Origin: Eledone cirrhosa
Lineage: Eukaryota
DNA: 64,000 nucleotides
Direction of reading: 5' to 3'
NCBI GenBank assembly: GCA_964016885.1
Contig: OZ024747.1
Coordinates: 42,470,001 to 42,534,000 of the forward strand
The position numbers were made by a program, and so were the translations under genes. The notes below the pieces were generated by a model that was given only the letters and a program-made list of their open reading frames with translations, did no database searches and had not been told where the DNA came from. Below, piece after piece: positions 15,343 through 36,033 of the stretch; position 1 is the stretch's first letter, and the number at the start of each line of letters is the position of its first letter.

Positions 15343-15490
15343 ATGGCTGATTTCGAGAATTTCGAGTCTGCTGGTGATGGAAATGTCGAAGAAGACCCCG
15401 CTGCCGACTTTTTAGCTCGTGAACAGACAGAACTTGCAGGTCTTGAAGATGATAATTTCCCCGTTGCAGATGCCACTCAACCCACTACAG
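15343..15490 (+). CDS. Clc: Clathrin light chain, coding exon 1 (MADFENFESAGDGNVEEDPAADFLAREQTELAGLEDDNFPVADATQPTT)
   Basis: Contains the conserved CLC consensus EEDPAADFLAREQxELAGLE; CAG|gtacgt donor, phase 1. Confidence 0.95.
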
Positions 15491-16841: not shown

Positions 16842-16892
16842 GTCTTGAAGATGACAACCTCCCTGTTGCAGAAGCCACTCAGCCTAGTGAAG
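16842..16892 (+). CDS. Clc: Clathrin light chain candidate 51-nt cassette exon A (GLEDDNLPVAEATQPSE), a duplicate of the exon-1 3' end
   Basis: tatag acceptor, AAG|gtatgt donor, symmetric phase 1-1; homologous to 15440-15490. Confidence 0.55.
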
Positions 16893-17843: not shown

Positions 17844-17894
17844 GTCTTGAAGATGACAACCTCCCTGTTGCAGAAGCCACTCAGCCTAGTGAAG
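17844..17894 (+). CDS. Clc: Clathrin light chain candidate 51-nt cassette exon B (identical to exon A)
   Basis: Exact copy of 16842-16892 with the same splice sites. Confidence 0.5.
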
Positions 17895-22902: not shown

Positions 22903-22973
22903 TTGATGGGTTTAATACCTTTGAAGAACCAAATGGGACAGTTAATGGTTTGAGTGAAGCAGATGTACCACAG
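22903..22973 (+). CDS. Clc: Clathrin light chain exon 2 (VDGFNTFEEPNGTVNGLSEADVPQ)
   Basis: ttctag acceptor, CAG|gtattg donor, phase 1 to 0. Confidence 0.88.
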
Positions 22974-23276: not shown

Positions 23277-23397
23277 ACTAATGGACCTACAGATGGGAGT
23301 GGTTATGCTGCTATTGCTCAGGTTGATAAACACCATCGAGAGCCTGAAAAAATTAAGTTGTGGAGAGAAGAACAGAAAAAACGACTTGAACAAAAAG
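23277..23397 (+). CDS. Clc: Clathrin light chain exon 3 (TNGPTDGSGYAAIAQVDKHHREPEKIKLWREEQKKRLEQK)
   Basis: Conserved NGPTD..YAAI..EPE.I..WREEQ..RL motif; canonical splice sites. Confidence 0.96.
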
Positions 23398-24030: not shown

Positions 24031-24142
24031 ATGCTGAAGAAGAAGATAAGAAGGAAATTTGGCGTGAAGCTGCTAAGAAAGAGCTCGAAGATTGGTTGAA
24101 AAATCAAGCAGAGCAGCTTATTAAGACTAAAGAAAACAATCG
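24031..24142 (+). CDS. Clc: Clathrin light chain exon 4 (DAEEEDKKEIWREAAKKELEDWLKNQAEQLIKTKENNR)
   Basis: Heavy-chain-binding helix with W..A.KELEDW..EQL.KTK.NNR; ends in phase 2. Confidence 0.96.
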
Positions 24143-26321
24143 GTAATGTTACTGGTTAATTTATAGTTTTTCATCTATCAATGCTTTTTTCATTCAATAC
24201 AATTATAATGCTATAGAAATTGTAGTGTTTCCTTGATATTGAGAAAATCATCTTGGCTCTTTATTTACTAAACATTTGCCTTACTGTTGGGTTGATAAGT
24301 GTAGTATTTAACATTACTGTTTTACTAAGAAAGATTTGCAGGACAACTTAAACAAATTTATATTTTAATTAAATGTAAATTTTGATTAAAATTTTGTACC
24401 CTTTTTAATTTTTTGGAATTTCTATAATGATCTAGAATATAAAAATAGTAAAATATTTACAAATCAAAATGACAGTGGTGGAACTGAGCAATTTAAAACA
24501 GTATGTGGACATCAACATTGATTCAAAATACAATTAAGAAACAAAAGAAAAAAACGGACATGAATTAAAAAAAAAAAGATTTTCTTATGTTACATATTGT
24601 CTTTGGCTTAAATTATAGTTTTAGAACCCCGATTTTAGTTATAAAGACGTAAATTGGTAGTGGTGGTTTTGGAAAATACTTGAATTGAAGTTCATATTTC
24701 TACAGAAGATATTTAATTAGGTGTGTTTCTGTGAACAGTCAAACAATTAATTCCACTAGTGGATGTTTCAATATCTGGAATATTTATTCTTAAATTGCAC
24801 TCTGTTAAGTGGTTGGTGTTAGGAAAGCACCCAGCAGCAAAAACCGTGCTAAAAATGAAACATGAGTGAGACGGGGTCCTCCATCACATGTAGGACAGTA
24901 ACTCGAAATAAGAACTGACTGCGACCGTGACAATGTGTCCAACCCATGCTAGCGTACAACATGGACATAAAATGTTGATATAACACCCTCTTATTCTGGA
25001 TAGCTGAAAATAAATAGTAATTGTAAATTTATGTAACAAACCATGAGTTTGAGCATGTTTTAAATTTTAGTGACACCCTTATAGAATGTAATATCACAAC
25101 AGCCTTTAGGCATTGTAATATTACCAACATGAAGGGAGGCTGTGGAACCTAAATACTTCTTTGCTAATCATTTAACAATTAAATTCTATTTATTTCCATT
25201 CAACACTGAAAGTAATATTTATTCTGCATGATATCGTCTGTGAGTGAAGTCAGTAATGTATTGTTATTCTTTAAATAGTCTCATGTTATGTTTGTTGTTC
25301 TTCCATACAATTCATTGACATTGTTTCAACACCAGCTTTCTCCCTGGCACTACTTTTCTGACTGTGGTGATGGTGGTATTGCTGTTGTTATCTTTCAGTA
25401 TTTATATTTGCACTTTACCTTGTTCATGTTGTAGGATTTATTGCTTTCCTATTTAAATGCTGTAATATTTTGCTTTTTGGTATGAGCCTTGTTGGAAATT
25501 AAGGACATCACCAATAACAATTTCTAGTATTTAGGGAATTCATCTGATAAATTCTGATATTTAATAGTTTTGACTTTTATCAATATGCATTCACTCACTC
25601 ACACTCTCACACACTGCAACACAATCAAGTCTGTTCATTCTATGTTAACTCTTAATCAATTTAGGTAGAATATATTATGCAGCTCTTGTGAAATTATTTT
25701 AATATGAAATATACATTTTTGATAGGATGAGATATTTTTTTACATACTGTAGTTTTTGTAAACTGTAAAACTTGCTATTTAGTTTCCAATTTTTCTCAAT
25801 TATAATAATGATTTCTACTATAGTCACAAGGTCAGCAATTGTGCCTAGAGTAGAAATCATTTCTCAATTATAATAATAATAATGAAAATAATAAAATAAG
25901 TTTTAGTTTGAAAACATTATTAATGTGCATAGACTGAGAGGTCAGTAGCTCTGATTAAGTACTGAGGGCTTGTGGCCATCCATCCAACCTTTGCTAGCAG
26001 GGAAAATGGACATTAAATGATGAAGATGATTTTATATTTTAGGTCTAGGTTTTATCTTGTGCTTTTAGCTTTTGCAGAGATGGCATCATGTGATATGGTT
26101 TCATCCTCCTTGGATGATTGTCTGCTTATCAGCTTTTTATTACCTTAAATTGTCACTTTTCCACCTGAACAATTATAAACATTGTGAACACTCTAGATCA
26201 ATAATTCCCCCAATTTCTCAATGCTCTGTAACATCTTTTTGAATATAAACATGTCAAACTGATCTCTTCATACAATGTCTTTGGTGCACTTGTAAGTGTG
26301 TATCTCATTGTTCTTCCACAG

Positions 26322-26360
26322 AGCTGCTGCCGCAGCCGAGCTTGCAGACATCACTTGTGG
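26322..26360 (+). CDS. Clc: Clathrin light chain 39-nt cassette microexon (AAAAAELADITCG)
   Basis: ttcttccacag acceptor, GG|gtaaga donor, symmetric phase 2-2, no stop, GC-rich island in an AT-rich intron. Confidence 0.7.
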
Positions 26361-27837
26361 GTAAGACTAAAACTGTAGCGACGCACTCTTAGTAGACTTT
26401 AGACATTTGCTGTTGTTGTTGTTATCGTTGTTGTTGTTGTCACATTGTCTGTAATCTTTGATTATTTACCTTCAGTTCTAATCTAGAGATTTATTTTCTT
26501 TTCAAAGGGATCCTTTTATTTGTTTAGCATGACCGTCATTCTGATTATAGATGTTATATCACATCTTAGAAAATTCTCTCTTAATCCCCTTCAAGTCTCT
26601 ACAATTATTTCAATACACTGATTATAGGTTGTCATAGCATTTATCTGTTATTTAGCTTGTCAGATGTCTATATTGTATAATGTCCAAACAGCTCATTTAA
26701 TCAGTCTCAAACTTATTACCAATATTTGCTATTATTCTCATGTGATATTTTATCATAGAACAAACCATGACATTGTGAAAATTATAATATAAAAGAATAT
26801 ATTTAAACAAGATGACAATGGAAATATATTTATTACCTGTTGTTTCTCAAGAAATATCTCTCTATTGAAGCCTTCCACAAGACCAGTTAAAGATAGTTTG
26901 CAATGGTTTAGGCATGTAGAGAAAAGTTACAATATGTAGAATAATTTTAAAAGTTGATAAAATTTATTTTTTATTATAAACTAATTTTGACCAATTGCTA
27001 TATTGTCTTATATTAAGGTTGGCTCCACAAATCTTTGGGATAAATTATTGGATGCTTTTATCCTGTAGACCACTGTCTTGTTATTTATAAGAAGCTATAA
27101 ATAAGGTAGAGGTGGTGAGGTGATTAATGTTAAAGAGATATTAAAGTAATTGTATTGACTGTTAAAATAGTAACTAATTGCATATTAGAATAAATTTTCA
27201 AAAACAAAAGATGATTTTAACTATCTTGTATTTGTATTTTGCAAAGGTTTTAAAAATCTAGTATTTAGTTTTTTAATAGTTGTCTGAATTTGCTGATTCA
27301 AACTTGTGTAGAGAGACAATTAAAAAAAGTATGTTTAAAACTATCAAATTTCAGAATATAGCCCTCTCAGCTGAATATATACATAAAACAATATAGAAGC
27401 ATTGCACCATATTTTCTCTCCAGCTTTCATCTGAAATGTCTGTTTTTTCTTCTTTTTCTTTGACATTTCATCTGATTGAAGGTTTAGCTTTAATCAAATT
27501 CTTTCCATTTTAATGAAATGCCCATTTAGTCCTATAAGGTGTAATCATGGTATATTATTCAGACAAAATGTTGGACTCTCCATAGCATGTTGTAACATCA
27601 AATTTTGAAATATGATGGTGAATAAAATTAAATGTAGGAAACATTATTGAGAATATATATGATAAAAATAATTTTGTGTTTTTAATAAGTGGGAAGCATA
27701 GATGAGGTTATTCATGAAAATGTTATTTGTTTTGTCATATTTGGTGAAACACTGCAACAGCTAAAGAAATAAAGTGTTAAGGTGATACAGGGGAAATTAT
27801 TATATCAGACATCCATGAAATCTATGGTAGTTTAATA

Positions 27838-28025
27838 ATTGTTTCTACTTTTGGCACAAGGCCAGCAATTACCCAGTGCATTACTGGTACTTTATTTTAT
27901 CGACCCCATAAGGACGAAGGCAAAGTTAACCTCGGCGGGATTTGAACTTAGAATGGCAAGGGTCGTAATTCTATGTCTCAAAGCATGGCGTCCGACCCTC
28001 TACCCATACTGCCAATCCACCGCCC
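27838..28025 (-). mobile_element. tRNA-derived SINE (abundant family; copies or fragments also at ~13345, 17222, 23068, 39637, 49310, 56857, 62230)
   Basis: tRNA-like head GGCGGTGGATTGGCAG..GTTCAAATCCC and a shared core CTTTGCCTT(T)CATCCTT..GGGGTCGATAAAATAAAGTACCAG. Confidence 0.8.
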
Positions 28026-28677
28026 AATGGTAGTTTAATAATGGTGAATGATCTGGCTTTAGCTTTATATTTGTAAAATCTTAAGTTATATAATTTCTTT
28101 GCTATATATTGTTTTTTTTTTAGTTCCATTTTTGTTAGAGAAATTTAGAGAACTCTGTTGTTCTGTTTTCCTTTTCTTTTTTTCGAGAATTCCTAACATT
28201 TACTTTTTTCCTATAAAAAGGTTTTCATAGATTCTACTGTAAAATATTTATTTTCAGTGATCATCATCATTTAAGTTGGTGCTTCTATATATCAATGTAT
28301 ATAGAATATACATGTATTATATATATATATATATATAGCTTTTTTGTTAGTTTGTCAATGTTCTTTCATCACACATTCTGGGACCTCCTCAATGACTATT
28401 TGTTTTCTTTTGTGCCACCTCAAGGATGACATGTCAATTCCTGAAGCATTCCATGTTTTTTCTTATTAAAGAGGAGGCACAGAAAAGATCAAATAGTGAT
28501 TGCAGAGGTCACAGAATGTGTGTGACAAGAACTTTGACAAACTAATGAATAATTTGTAATATATATATAATCTATATACTACGATAAACAAGGCAGTAGC
28601 AAATGTGCAATTGTCACATGTTCTTTAGTTTTATTTACAATTTTCCCTCTCCGTTTCTTTACTCATTTCCTCTACAG

Positions 28678-28704
28678 GCACTCGGAGGCTTTGGAGAAAA
28701 AAAA
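28678..28704 (+). CDS. Clc: Clathrin light chain 27-nt cassette microexon (HSEALEKKK)
   Basis: Long pyrimidine tract with ctctacag acceptor, perfect gtaagt donor, symmetric phase 2-2. Confidence 0.7.
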
Positions 28705-29669
28705 GTAAGTATTCAATGTGGGTAATTTTGCTGTTTTGTAATAAGGTCTCTATATGCTGCTAATTTGGGGATAAATTCTTTTCTCTTCTATATATTTTGA
28801 TAATAATATCAATCAATATTTCAAATAATCTGTTAACTTCCATAATCTATACATTTATTGGTATAAGGGACTGGCCTTTTATTCTAGACTTTAATCTGTA
28901 GAAGCTTGGGGTGTAAATAGTGTAAAATGTAGTTTTGCTTTTTAAGTGTCAGGAAAACAGTTATTAAAACTGTTTTGTATCTTCGATCTTGGCTAACAAA
29001 TTACCCATAAAGCTTAATACCGGATTTTGATTTTGTTATGGTTGTTGTTCAATTTAGCTTTTTCCCTTTGCTTTTATTAAAAAATAAAAAAAATGAAGTT
29101 TGAAACTTTTGCATGATTTTGTTACAAAAAAATGTTAAATGGTTGATTATTATAAACAGCCAATTTAACTTCATACTTTGATGTTGGTTCTTTTAAGCAG
29201 GATTATTTTCATTGAATTGTTTTAATATTAAAAGTATTTCATTGTCAAACTATGTCCAATAACCTTTAGCATATTAATTGACTTAACATTTTATTGTAGT
29301 TTTGAGGTAATTATTAAATCTGTAAATCTTATATAATATACACTATATAATTGTTAATCATATCTTCTCATAATCGATGACTGATTTGAGGCATACTTGT
29401 ATCTGAATTTATTCTAAACAGTAGGGATTGAAACAATTTTGAACATCAGGGATGAAACGTATTTATTAAGTGACAGTGTGTTTGTTACTGTCTGTGATGA
29501 ATATACTTACATCATTCTGGCATGCTTGAATGAATGTTAAATATTCAATGCACATGGCTGCCTTTTAGATGTGTCAAATGCCAAATTCTAGTTAGTATAT
29601 GACCTATCTTCATATTTCAGATAAACCTATTAATCTACACTAAGTTAATATTAATGCCTTACATAATCA

Positions 29670-29985
29670 TCATAGTCCATCTATAGTTGACATCAATAGT
29701 CCATCTATAGTTGACATCAATAGTCCATCTATAGTTGACATCAATAGTCCATCTATAGTTGACAATATCAATAGTCCATCTATAGTTGACAATATCAATA
29801 GTCCATCTATAGTTGACAATATCAATAGTCCATCTATAGTTGACATCAATAGTCCATCTATAGTTGACAACATCAATAGTCCATCTATAGTTGACAATAT
29901 CAAGTCAATCTATAGTTGACAACATCAATAGTCAATCTATAGTTGACAACATCAATAGTCAATCTATAGTTGACAATATCAATGT
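29670..29985. repeat. Minisatellite, 24/27-bp units (atagtccatctatagttgac[aa]catca)
   Basis: About 12 tandem units. Confidence 0.95.
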
Positions 29986-30142
29986 ACTTATCGTATTTAG
30001 TCAATCTTCAGTTGACAATGACTGTCCATAGTATCAAACGTGTTCTCTTTGTTAGGGTTCTATTCTCGGCTGTTAATGTTCAATTTCCTCATGTTTAGCC
30101 ACATTGTGTCTTGTCGTCTACTTTAATTTCTCATATTACTAG

Positions 30143-30148
30143 ACAACT
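30143..30148 (+). CDS. Clc: Possible 6-nt microexon of clathrin light chain (adds QL)
   Basis: tttctcatattactag|ACAACT|gtgagt, frame-preserving; could occur by chance. Confidence 0.25.
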
Positions 30149-30419
30149 GTGAGTAAATAGATGATCCTGGCAACCAAGTTCCCTTCATTCTTTGAACATG
30201 TCGAAACCAGCAAAAATTTCATTATGCTAATATCTCTTCCATGCTAAAAAACTTGCTTTGTCTAGGATGAGGGCAATCTTCAGTTTGTCTTTCCATGTGA
30301 TGTCCCGGATCTGTCACAGGTGTCTCAAGAATGCATATAATTTTTATTTTTATGAAGGAATTTATAGTTTACTTGAAGCATAGTATATGGTATATAGAAT
30401 TCGAAGTTGGAAAGTCACG

Positions 30420-31877
30420 ACAATGCCGGTTTGGACAGAGAAAAAAAAAATCAAAGCGCAAAAAGTAGGGTTTGTTCTTTTTTACCTTAATTTATTCATA
30501 TTACTTGATATTTCAAGATTAGTATCTCTTCGACTGAGGAAAATAAAGGAACTATTCCAGTGTCTGATGTGGCTTGCTATACTATGCTGGCCGGAAGTGA
30601 TTTTAATATTTATTTATTTGTTATATTTATTTATTTATTTTAAACTCTTTTGTTTAAAATCAAAGGGGCAAAGAGTCGTTTCCCTTTAAATTCGCTTAGA
30701 CGCATATATATTAGTACGTGCCTGCCTAAGTGTGTGTAAGCACGCATGCAAATATGTAAACATGCATGGATGGAATATATGGTTTCTCACAGATGGATAA
30801 TGTTGTCATAAGCGGATGGCCCTGCAGATGGCTGGTGTGTCATCACAGAAATGTGGGAGCTTCAGGAAGCAAGTGTTGGTGGAGTTTGTGCTTTGAATGC
30901 AGTATTTCTTATTTCTAGCACGATTCACGGTGGATGCCGGGTAACTGTTTAACTTAAGCACTTCCAAGAAGTGTGGGTGTCTCAGTCTCCTGTGGTGCTG
31001 CATCTGTTCTGGATATGTGTTGGTTCATTCCTTATGTATCCAGACTTGGCACCAAGGGGGACGGCCGATTTGAAATGGATGAACAAGTCCCTGCTGGCGG
31101 CTTTTCTGTAGAAGTTGGTGTGGATACCGCCTTATTCCGTTACCCTGAGTTGGAAGTCTAGCAGGGAGAGGGTTCCAGTGTCATCTGGGTGTTCCATGCT
31201 GAACCTTATGTTAACGTCCATGCTGGAGAATGCTGTGTATATTTTGTCTGCTTCTTCATGGGATGGTGTAAGGATGAGTATGTCATCTACATATCGGGTG
31301 GAGAAGGCACAGGAGTGGCAGGTGTTCCAACTGGGTTCATACAAGTGATGGCCGGCAGGCCCAATAGGCTGGATCCCATAGGTAGTTCTGTATGTATGGT
31401 GGTGGAAGGTGAAATAAGTATTATGCACCATGATAGTTAGAAGCTGGTGTATGTCTGTCGGATTGAGGCCGTATCAGTAAATGTTATGAGATTATGTAGT
31501 CAATAAGTTGATGGCTGGGTGAGGAGGGGACTGTAGTATAGAGGGAGACAACGTCGAGGCGAAAGGCATATCTATTGAGTCTAAGTTGGTCAGGTTGGAG
31601 TTGGTGGAGTCTTTGTACAACTTCATCAAAACTACTGACATGCCCAGGGAAGGTGGAGAGTATAAGCTTAAGGATCTGGGTGAGAAGCCAGGAAATTTTA
31701 TGTAGGTGTCCTTCTATTCTGGAGACAATTGAATAGTTACCTTATTTTCTTCAGTCGAAGAGATACTAATCTCGAAATATCAGGTCATATGAATAAATTA
31801 ATGTAAAAAAGAACAAACCCTACTTTTTGTGTTTTTTTGCGTTTTGATTTTTTCTCTGTCCAAATCTGCATTGTCAT
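30420..31877 (-). mobile_element. Degenerate Penelope-like element RT fragment bounded by ~140-bp inverted repeats
   Basis: NTYFTF, RYVDDILIL, IRFSMEHPDDTGTLSLLD and FYRKAA motifs of PLE RTs; inverted repeats at 30420-30550 and 31740-31877. Confidence 0.75.
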
Positions 31878-33187
31878 GGTTTTCCATTGTGCTATGCGAG
31901 TCATACTTTTACAAACATCTAAACCTTGTAAATAGCTGTCCCTATGACAGTGTAAGGACTGTGCTATGTGAGTGACACTTTTCCGAGCATCTAAACCTTG
32001 TGAGTAGCTGTCCTTATGACTGTGTAAGGACTGTTGTACGAGTGACACTTTTCCAGGCAACTAAACTGTGAGTAGCTGCTACAGACCCAACTGGCTTACT
32101 GCCAGATGTTTTTGTTAAGTCAACACGTCATACTTTGTATTGTTTGACATGTTTTCCTTGTAGCTATCAGACAGACACTATATCCACGAGGCTTCTCTTT
32201 CTGAATCCACATTGAGTCTCAGATAGAACTATCATGATTTTCTCATTCAGTCTGTTGAGCAATATTTTTGTGAGACTCTTCCCAACAATAACAACAAGAG
32301 AAATTCATTGATAGGTCCCACATTCATTCCTATCACTTTAAAAACAATATAGGTGTAATACTAACATATTTCCAGGAGTTCACTAGCATACCATGATGTC
32401 AACATCAGCTAGTGATGTCTAATGTGATCATCACCTCCATTTTTTTCACATTTCTACTGGGATCCTCTGCATTTCTGGTACTTTGCTAAGTAACCTGCTT
32501 CTGACCAGTACCATCTCTAACATAAATGTCTTCCATAGACAAAAGGCAACATATAAAGAGGAAGGGAATTGGCTAATGTTGACACCTTTTTCAAGACCAT
32601 TACTGATATGGATAATGTTATTGGATAAGACTTGCTGGTAGCTTTTCAATTTAATAGAAATACTTCAGTAATTGGACCAGTAAATATCATTATTCAGAAC
32701 TACTTTATCTCAAATATATTATAAATTGTTATTTAATACTTACATACTGATTAGACTCACGCAGTGTTGATATTGTTTAGCTATAAGTTAGTCTTGGTAG
32801 GTTAGGGAATTTCTTCAGTTCAGATTTGAGCAGACAACCTGGCTGTAAAACAAGACCTCACTGTACCTACTTTGTTGATTACAAAATTGAATAAAATAAA
32901 CGCAAACGTAAAATGATCCAAGATGTTTAACGAACTTTAGAAGTGATGTGATAAATGATTTACCTAAATATAAATAATTCAGGGACTATTCAATGAATTG
33001 AGTTGATATGTGATGCAAGTCATATCAATGGTTCTATTGCTCTTTTTCTGCCTCAAATTTGTTTTTATAATGTTTGTTATTTTTTTATTTTGAATTAAAT
33101 AAGATTTTTATTCATAATCTGTTATAATATTCAATGAAATATATCTAAAAAAATGTGTTGTAGTAGTAGGATGTTCATTGGTTATAA

Positions 33188-33218
<31 letters not shown>

Positions 33219-35861
33219 CACACATATATATATGCACACACATATACATACACACACCTTTATTTAAAAATGTAAACTTCCCACACGATATACAACATTT
33301 CTGTTGTTCAGCAGTTGATGCTTCCTCCTTGCTTGTCAAAAGTTGCTCACTAAAATACACCTAATTATTATTATTATTATCATATTAACCCAGTTGTTAT
33401 TTTGTGAACCCAGTTATGAATGTCTTCTACTCCACTGTTTCCGCATTTTTGTCAATTTGCCAAATATTTTCACTGAATTGTTCTATATAAAATTATTCCC
33501 AGAGTTAAACAAAAACCTGTTTGGCTTTTATTGTGGCTGCATTATTTCTCATTAAAAAAAATATTATTCATTTCCTTCTTTAGTTAATTATATTTCTTGT
33601 TTTTACTGATATTTTGCAAGATTACTTTACACTTTCTTTCTCTTTCAAATTCCCATTAACCCTTTAGCATTTAAACTGGCCATATCCGGCCAGAATTCTC
33701 TCAGCTCTTTGTGTTGAAACCAGCTGTAACTGGCCACTCATACTGATGTTAGGTATTATTCTTAAAATAAATAACATCAAATCTCATAGCTTCAATATTA
33801 TGTGAGATAATTATGTGAGGTAAAGCCATTACCTTGAAAATACAATAGTATATATAGAGTAATGGTTAAAGTACCTTAAATCTTTTATCAATTTACTCAG
33901 TATACACTGTAAAGTGGTTTATATTAGGAAGAGCAATCAATTATAGAAACCATGCAAGATATGGAACATATGAGCAAGACATGGTCACCTGATCAATTTA
34001 GCCTTAGATGACTGTCTTACAGAACTGTTTCTGGCTTAGTTTCTACGGCTGGATACCCTTCCTAATGCCAACCACATTTACAGTGAGGACTGGGTGCTTT
34101 TTATCGTGGCACCAAAATGACCTCCTGACAGGTTGGAATGGGTACTTTTCCAACATATCACAAGTACTAACACCTTGCAGAGTGAACTGGGTGCTTCTGT
34201 TTTATTAATTGGTGACATTGTGCCTACATATATCAATAATAGGTTTATGATAATATTGGAAATGCATTGTTCCCTAACGACAACTGAACTGTCAATGTAA
34301 TATGATAATGTAATTTAGATGTATCATTAATATATTATTTGGGTGGTATCTGATTTCTGATTATTGTTTTGTATTATAGCATTTAAACTAAGCAACAAAA
34401 TGAAAGCCACAATCCATTATACACGCATTTACATTAATTGTAAGACAAATTGACCGATAAACTATGGAATGAAATTGAGGACATTTGTATTTTTTATATT
34501 ATTCATATTGTTAATGAATATTTTAAATTGACAGCTAAATACTTTAAATTAAATGTGATGTATATTTCCACTGTTCAGTAGGGCAGTTACAGTAACTTCT
34601 TCACTGAGGGTCTGTTCATGTCAAGCCATATACATTTATGTAAATATCAATATTTGTTAAAGCTTTATCAGTATTATAACACAGCAGGATAATATTAAAG
34701 ATTTCACATTATAGTTCAGATTGTTTTCTTCTTGATGTAAAAAAAATCAAAATAGATAATTCTCAATGTAGAAGAGATAATAGAAGTATATAATAATAAA
34801 ATTGTGTACAGTGCTCAGGTGCACTACAACTCATCAAAAGTGCATGTATAGTACATAGAATAATGTACAAATGCCAGGAAAATGAACAGCGTCATGATAT
34901 ACACACAGATACATGTGTGCATGTGTATGGAGGTGGAATATTAGGTGTAGTGTTGGCAAATTTCAGGAAGCATGGAAGTTTTGAAAGATGCAATTTTCAA
35001 AGATGTTTTTATTTTCTAAACACTGCTTCTTCAGCACTACCTATGTGAATTTTACATAATCTCTAGAATCAAATACTTTGAAAAAATACAATTTCTTGAA
35101 AAAGAAAATTTTTTTCTAAAAATTATGTTTCGTGGTTCTTTTATAAACTTTCTCTTATAAATTTTCAACTATTGTACAATTTTCAAAATGACTGAAATTT
35201 CTACAGGTACTGTTAGTATATAACACTTGGTTAATGTAAGTCACTTTATATTACTAATTACATGTCAAGTGATATTGGTTTATGTTAATTAGAAATATTT
35301 CAGGAAAGTTAGCTGGAATCAGTTCACCTAGCACCATGACATTCCCTTTAATTCCCTTTAATTTTGTATTTGATACTAAAAGTCTAGCTACTTTCCTTGG
35401 AGCAATACATAATAAAATAAAGTTGGACTGGTAATATAATTATATGTTTATATCATAATATTTACTGTTAAATGTCTATTTCAGAAATTGCAATAGAAAG
35501 ATTACATAAAACTTGTTTTAAATAAAAGGCTTCATAATTATTGTAAATCACTTCTCCCCGTTCTGTGTTTGTCATGTTCATGTCTTGTTATATCTCTGTG
35601 CACCAGCAAATAATAAATTTGATTACCTTTACATATCTAAAATCTTGTTTAGATATCTAATCATAAAAGTTTTTGCAATTACTATGATGTAATTTAATTC
35701 AGACATACACTTACTCTTCTATGGATATCACACTACCAATAGAATATGAAACATTTTTACTTTTACCAGCAATATAAATATGCTTGTTTTGTAAATGTAT
35801 TACTTTAGTTAACCTCTCTTAGTATTCTTGTATTAATTAAATATTGTCTTCCCTTCTCTAG

Positions 35862-36033
35862 GGCCCAAGAAGAAGCAAGTATGAAGGATCGTGAAGAGAG
35901 CATTGCTGGTCAAGAATGGGAGAAAATCTGTCGACTTTGTGACTTCAACCCTAAACATTCCAAAAACACAAAAGACGTGTCTCGTATGCGATCAATATTG
36001 CTACAACTGAAGCAAACGCCCCTGGTTCGTTGA
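35862..36033 (+). CDS. Clc: Clathrin light chain last coding exon (AQEEASMKDREESIAGQEWEKICRLCDFNPKHSKNTKDVSRMRSILLQLKQTPLVR*)
   Basis: Hallmark C-terminus EWE...LCDFNPK.SK..KDVSRMRS.L..LKQ.PL; AATAAA at 36210. Confidence 0.97.

Follow-up and report, generated by a model that had tools for sequence, protein, structure and literature searches.

The clathrin light chain (CLC) gene of the octopus Eledone cirrhosa, read here in a window of 64,000 nucleotides (nt; GenBank assembly GCA_964016885.1, contig OZ024747.1, positions 42,470,001 to 42,534,000 of the forward strand), carries within its last intron two small exons, M1 and M2, at the very junction where vertebrate light chains receive their neuronal inserts. 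On balance, and with some reserve, we favour the view that these are optional in-frame exons which lengthen the helix of the light chain, are regulated by tissue (probably neural), and occupy an ancient intron that has repeatedly gained unrelated exons. Their positions in the window are as follows:

26322..26360, + strand: M1, 39-nt alternative exon, peptide AAAAAELADITCG, bordered by cag upstream and gtaaga downstream
28678..28704, + strand: M2, 27-nt alternative microexon, peptide HSEALEKKK, bordered by cag upstream and gtaagt downstream

Both are frame-preserving cassettes, in phase 2 on either side and with AG/GT borders, and all four combinations of inclusion are open, giving proteins of 207, 220, 216 or 229 amino acids (aa) with neither, M1, M2 or both. 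When every AG..GT segment of 3-60 nt in the intron that keeps the frame and lacks a stop was scored with an approximate splice-site matrix (not trained on octopus), M1 and M2 ranked first and second of 396 candidates (scores 12.9 and 10.0; the next reached 3.9), and two candidates attained the lower of these scores in 0/100 composition-matched resamples. Acceptor scores were 6.1 for M1 and 9.2 for M2, against -2.1 to 7.7 for four constitutive acceptors. The initial annotation, which had described phase-2 exons of 39 and 27 nt with strong splice sites, was exact in coordinates, lengths and peptides; its phrase 'two microexons' holds for M2 and fails for M1, as the term has been defined to cover 3-27 nt (10.1101/2024.10.23.619860; here and below, literature is cited from the accessible parts of each source). 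Both regions are single-copy in the genome as far as the search sees, which speaks against a repeat origin for either. One further candidate, unannotated and 12 nt long, lies at 26078-26089 (peptide DGIM; fourth of the 396, score 3.0, weak donor) and recalls the bivalve inserts RGNM, RDNM and KHNM, probably by chance.

The intron that holds both exons spans 11,719 nt (24143-35861) and follows ...KENNR in a gene whose five core coding exons, with the inserts skipped, encode the form of 207 aa:

15343..15490, + strand: CLC coding exon 1, with the ATG and the conserved EEDPAADFL segment; 47/49 aa the same as in Octopus orthologues
22903..22973, + strand: CLC exon 2, a variable linker, from the reading frame and comparison with Octopus orthologues
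23277..23397, + strand: CLC exon 3, from the reading frame and comparison with Octopus orthologues
24031..24142, + strand: CLC exon 4, its last base within the Arg codon of KENNR (phase 2)
35862..36033, + strand: last coding exon, to the stop codon, from its match to named octopus CLCs

Assignment to the CLC family (PF01086) was made on sequence homology and domain order, that is, a conserved N-terminal segment, a long helix and a C-terminal segment. Across named octopod clathrin light chains the last-exon peptide matches at 98-100% identity, reaching 100% with named octopus CLCs that carry PF01086; the Octopus bimaculoides orthologue matches CLCb in the PDB at E 1.8e-45, and the encoded protein differs from that of O. 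sinensis at 14/229 residues. The last exon has a single match in the whole 3.0-Gb genome, where this is the only CLC gene found.

Conservation in related species was among the checks named in the initial annotation, and conserved the two exons are: in isoforms of O. bimaculoides, O. sinensis and O. vulgaris, the M1 peptide is identical at 13/13 residues and that of M2 at 8/9, exceeding the linker exon 2 (17-20/24). Included and skipped isoforms are annotated across these three species, with M1 in XP_014774089.1 and XP_014774094.1, M2 in XP_014774092.1 and neither in XP_014774093.1 of O. bimaculoides, both inserts in XP_036361865.1 and XP_036361866.1 of O. sinensis, and M1-only, M2-only and skip forms in O. 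vulgaris; the skip form is known for O. bimaculoides and O. vulgaris and the double-insert form for O. sinensis. M1 and M2 are already present, then, in the public annotation of related species. A Logan contig of 962 nt (P0004) encodes a full-length protein including M1, and at this site the cuttlefish Sepia carries an insert of 9 aa (P0131), found also in a Logan contig of 1056 nt (P0136); because they are so short while encoding an insert-bearing CLC, we infer that both contigs are spliced transcripts. The Sepia insert equals M2 in length and both begin with HS, a marginal likeness (p 0.21 by shuffling, 0.044 against pooled windows), and the one protein retrieved from Argonauta has no insert. 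These comparisons support M1 and M2 as genuine alternative exons with conservation in other octopuses.

That the octopus exons lie at the vertebrate insert site, as first proposed, is borne out in codon and phase, both following directly on NNR in phase 2. The CLCb chains in 6wcj and 6sct (bovine/porcine-type) carry an 18-aa insert directly after NNR, and in lizard and cuckoo CLCa the pair N-R becomes N-S on joining the 12-aa exon (P0364 and P0365 versus P0235 and P0197); this change from Arg to Ser requires the junction to follow base two of the codon and therefore to be in phase 2. In L078, a genomic contig that among the fetched proteins is matched best by insect CLCs, a phase-2 intron of 165 nt interrupts the same codon, and coral-like fragments with apparent intron read-through (P0071, P0107, P0116 and P0118) end in R before last-exon sequence, which suggests that the intron predates the bilaterians.

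Inserts at this junction were surveyed in 381 fetched proteins, drawn from best-120 lists and the cluster members for 30 chosen proteins. Length could be measured between two anchors in 366, among which 286 showed no added residues and 30 were longer by four, one of the latter (P0287) reflecting a downstream length change and no insert. Inserts of 4 aa occur among arthropods in odonates (dragonflies), the mayfly Cloeon, the cricket Gryllus, gall midges and bees, and in chelicerates (the scorpion Centruroides, the spiders Stegodyphus and Uloborus, and one member of an Ixodes cluster), the arthropod 4-mers reading ESAK, EAAK, ESAV, EASK or EESK. Bivalves have the 4-aa forms RGNM, KHNM and RDNM in scallops (Mizuhopecten, Pecten), oysters (Crassostrea/Magallana) and the mussel Mytilus, with 6 aa in Mya and 3 aa in Dreissena; gastropods have 10 aa in Pomacea, Littorina and Physella, and also 7 aa in Littorina; the nemertean Lineus has 11 aa, and vertebrates 12 and 18. 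Inserts of 3, 4, 6, 7, 8, 10, 11, 12 and 18 aa share no common motif. Among the retrieved named entries, Lingula (8 isoforms), Tubulanus, Patella, Haliotis, Liolophura, Periplaneta and Strigamia are insert-free, as are the echinoderm, hemichordate, cnidarian and sponge proteins, a weak form of absence that concerns annotations only and to which one search favouring insert-free forms contributes.

Contigs from metagenome collections (n=80) give 59 without an insert, 7 with four extra residues and one with a 30-aa insert of vertebrate CLCa type, the remainder being the intron-bearing L078, 9 other small length changes and 3 unparsed. At 1011-1022 in the L078 intron lies a predicted 12-nt segment bounded by AG and GT (EAAI), with TGC and CTAAT just upstream; as a prediction, this is an eMIC-like layout in an arthropod-like CLC gene. 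In another set of animal CLCs (P0285, P0319, P0332, P0350 and L010) the helix ends in NNK and is followed at the same junction by a 4-aa insert of the form V-[TNS]-N-K, which the related P0327 lacks. On these sequences the octopus is one case among many, with inserts at this junction widespread in protostomes.

This breadth bears on the proposal that octopuses had either converged upon vertebrate-like neural isoforms or retained them from a bilaterian ancestor: the alternative exons and the shared site stand, sequence kinship with the vertebrate inserts is not supported, and the choice itself was too narrow given how widespread inserts are in protostomes. Eight comparisons of M1 and M2 with four vertebrate inserts all gave p of at least 0.14, at the low power that short peptides allow. 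The best local octopus-vertebrate matches (ADI/ADV and AEL/SEL) gave p 0.37-0.39 by shuffling, and the echo of vertebrate FADV/DADI once heard in the LADI stretch is at chance level (p 0.37). M2 compared with the inserts of Physella and P0096 gave p 0.02-0.07, lost after correction for 30 comparisons.

Possible duplication was examined in 16 in-register comparisons of an insert with the start of its own last exon, M1 entering twice, as the window sequence and as P0129. The gastropod 10-aa inserts of Pomacea and Littorina match their own last-exon start (p 0.0003 and 0.0007), as does the 18-aa insert of Amia CLCb (p 0.0006) and, more weakly, that of Lineus (p 0.015); the 12-aa insert of a fish CLCa-type sequence (L008) reached ~0.04 by shuffling and >0.2 against pooled windows, and the remaining tests, other than those weighed below, were not significant. 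Given this likeness in the gastropod and Amia inserts, new exons could plausibly have arisen here, in some lineages, by duplication of an acceptor together with the beginning of its exon, and the 18-aa neuronal exon of vertebrates may likewise be of duplication origin. Resemblance of this kind is seen in gastropod, nemertean and fish CLCb proteins (P0256, P0259, P0020 and P0366). Birth of M1 and M2 from the last-exon start was considered and set aside, being not significant at the protein level, with 11/39 and 9/27 nt identical. From the distribution as a whole we infer separate origins, in some lineages via a duplicated acceptor and last-exon start, and it is likely that the ancient intron gained unrelated small exons several times.

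Neural use of M1 and M2 in octopus is probable by analogy, because in mouse the 54-nt exon of Clta is eMIC-dependent and the Cltb exon is neural (PMC8797185, supplement rows), and because small exons that are conserved or convergent are mostly neural (10.64898/2026.09.05.749416). Within the intron, GCATG occurs 13 times in sense and 9 in antisense (null mean 9.0) and TGCATG 5 and 3 times (null 4.5). Copies of GCATG do lie downstream of M1 and M2 at 26527 (+167, reading AGCATG) and 29111 (+407), just as first reported; being two of the 13 and at background density, they lend no support by enrichment to RBFOX-type regulation. An eMIC signature, comprising a close UGC, a long AG exclusion zone and a CUAAY branch point (PMC8797185), is not clearly present: the AG-free zones measure 23 nt for M1 and 47 nt, with 86% pyrimidine, for M2, and CTRAY stands at -63 and -136 respectively. 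An exon-by-exon search of the genome for the eMIC domain (PF15230), run without a positive control, returned no match.

How the inserts might act is suggested by an AlphaFold2 model of the O. sinensis double-insert isoform, built on a 32-row alignment, in which one helix (residues 114-203) spans both inserts (169-190) with a block predicted local distance difference test (pLDDT) score of 84-95, the mean over the model being 67.9. By prediction, the heavy-chain-binding helix gains 13, 9 or 22 residues from the inserts; some 3.5, 2.5 or 6 extra helical turns would then separate the heavy-chain-binding stretch from the C-terminal segment. A longer spacer would alter the distance and angle of the C-terminal vertex-binding segment and, extrapolating from vertebrate work, its contacts with the neighbouring triskelion knee, with consequences for lattice curvature and vesicle budding. 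Vertebrate inserts at this position bias clathrin towards larger cages via the neighbouring knee, altering cage curvature (PMC7519287); by analogy, those of octopus would act as the same kind of spacer.

Several observations weigh against regulated, probably neural exons of separate origin as the explanation. For the structure, the predicted template modelling score (pTM) of the model is 0.29. AlphaFold tends, moreover, toward continuous helices. The isoforms of related species are mostly gene models. A single candidate matched the score of M2 in 1/100 resamples and that of M1 in 8/100, the latter as might be expected if M1 and M2 were cryptic sites or annotation noise without function; we regard this as highly improbable and largely refuted already by peptides conserved in three other species, in independent annotations and in a spliced contig. 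No UGC lies proximal to either acceptor (the nearest TGC is at -37 for M1 and -72 for M2), both acceptors are strong, unlike the weak ones reported for fly eMIC targets (PMC8797185), and the 12-aa exon of CLCa finds use in heart and muscle as well (PMC8712872), such that the site is not neuron-only even in vertebrates. Together with the unenriched GCATG, these points favour exons that are real yet muscle-enriched, developmental or broadly alternative, their position being reused only because no other intron lets the protein accommodate a helical spacer. We think this possible though unlikely, in that among tissue-specific small exons with deep conservation most are neural and convergence within the same gene occurs mainly in neural tissue (10.64898/2026.09.05.749416).

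As to origin, the duplication signature is missing from both octopus inserts (for M1, p 0.04 by shuffling and 0.22 against pooled windows; for M2, p 0.36) and from the 18-aa insert of L008 (p 0.11); short inserts diverge fast, and their dissimilarity is no proof of separate origin; and the 4-aa length common to arthropods, bivalves and other invertebrates fits inheritance. Such inheritance would follow from a single neural microexon at the junction in the protostome or bilaterian ancestor, its 12-nt form kept in arthropods and bivalves and changed or replaced in vertebrates, gastropods and cephalopods. The spread of 4-aa inserts across insects, chelicerates, bivalves and 7/80 metagenome-collection contigs argues for it, as do the predicted 12-nt exon of L078 with its upstream motifs and the mouse Clta and Cltb exons; set against these, the arthropod and bivalve 4-mers have no residues in common, the insert-free echinoderm, hemichordate, Lingula, Tubulanus, Patella, Haliotis, cnidarian and sponge entries count weakly the other way, the fly tables hold no Drosophila Clc row among 17 'clc' matches, and a study of 20 species, octopus, centipede, mayfly and bee among them, found only APBB and MADD to be confidently bilaterian-ancestral (10.64898/2026.09.05.749416). 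A single ancestral exon seems doubtful. Slightly less probable again is its fullest version, a bilaterian-wide neural lengthening of CLC in which an ancestral exon survives as the 12-nt form in arthropods and bivalves and was separately expanded to two exons and four isoforms in CLTA and in octopuses; if true, it would add a third ancestral neural exon site to APBB and MADD.

A second variable site adjoins the conserved N-terminal segment, where the window holds two predicted cassettes:

16842..16892, + strand: D1, 51-nt phase-1 cassette, copied from exon 1 (its 3' third); predicted, 10/17 aa as in the O. bimaculoides cassette
17844..17894, + strand: D2, 51-nt phase-1 cassette with the same peptide as D1, within a direct repeat of ~0.6 kb

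The direct repeat is identical at 542/553 aligned bases, and the acceptor of D1 and D2 is an AG following a (TA)n run. One such cassette is present in the O. bimaculoides and Argonauta proteins and up to two in O. vulgaris, and it is because the number differs among them that we read D1 and D2, from sequence, as a variable site; D2 may have arisen by recent duplication, or may be an artefact of assembly. Elsewhere in the window, a tandem array of period 27 (~12 copies, 94% matches) lies downstream of M2 at 29672-29983, and a GC-richer intronic stretch at 31000-31730 (the 30001-32000 bin has 40% GC) looks, by eye, like a minus-strand retroelement fragment.

A literature search, with subscription papers and preprint supplements outside its coverage, found no report of invertebrate CLC inserts at this site; the accessible parts of PMC6548504 and 10.64898/2026.09.14.751627 hold nothing on them, and in one review CLC splicing is treated as a trait of vertebrates (PMC8712872). 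Should the octopus and arthropod inserts prove neural, synaptic clathrin would have been tuned through one junction that was reached repeatedly or kept throughout bilaterian history. Whether length or sequence sets lattice curvature is a question still open for the vertebrate isoforms, and unrelated inserts of 4, 9, 13, 18, 22 and 30 residues provide a natural series in which to address it.

Among known systems, the neural microexons dependent on eMIC/Srrm234 resemble M1 and M2 in being short and frame-preserving, and M2 in particular with its 27 nt and 47-nt pyrimidine-rich acceptor; they differ in that octopus lacks a UGC near the acceptor and M1 has 39 nt and a 23-nt AG-free zone. The arthropod 12-nt insert (ESAK class) shares junction and phase with octopus, but it encodes 4 aa of unrelated sequence and is conserved from insects to chelicerates. 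Convergence of neural exons upon the same position is a described pattern (10.64898/2026.09.05.749416), and its Type I likewise covers orthologous genes of distant bilaterians that carry unlike small exons at one and the same point in the protein; CLC is absent from the main text of that source, whose supplements may list it. As for the independent origin that Type I implies, lengths and sequences differ here and some lineages carry a duplication signature. Closest of all are the vertebrate genes, where exons 5+6 of CLTA (18+12 aa) and exon 5 of CLTB (18 aa) are symmetric cassettes at the same NNR junction in phase 2. Octopus lengths are 13+9 aa, with no significant similarity in sequence, and a single gene stands in place of two paralogues; yet like CLTA the octopus gene has two exons from which four isoforms can be made, and in each a cysteine comes with one exon of the pair, M1 in octopus and the 12-aa exon in vertebrate CLCa.

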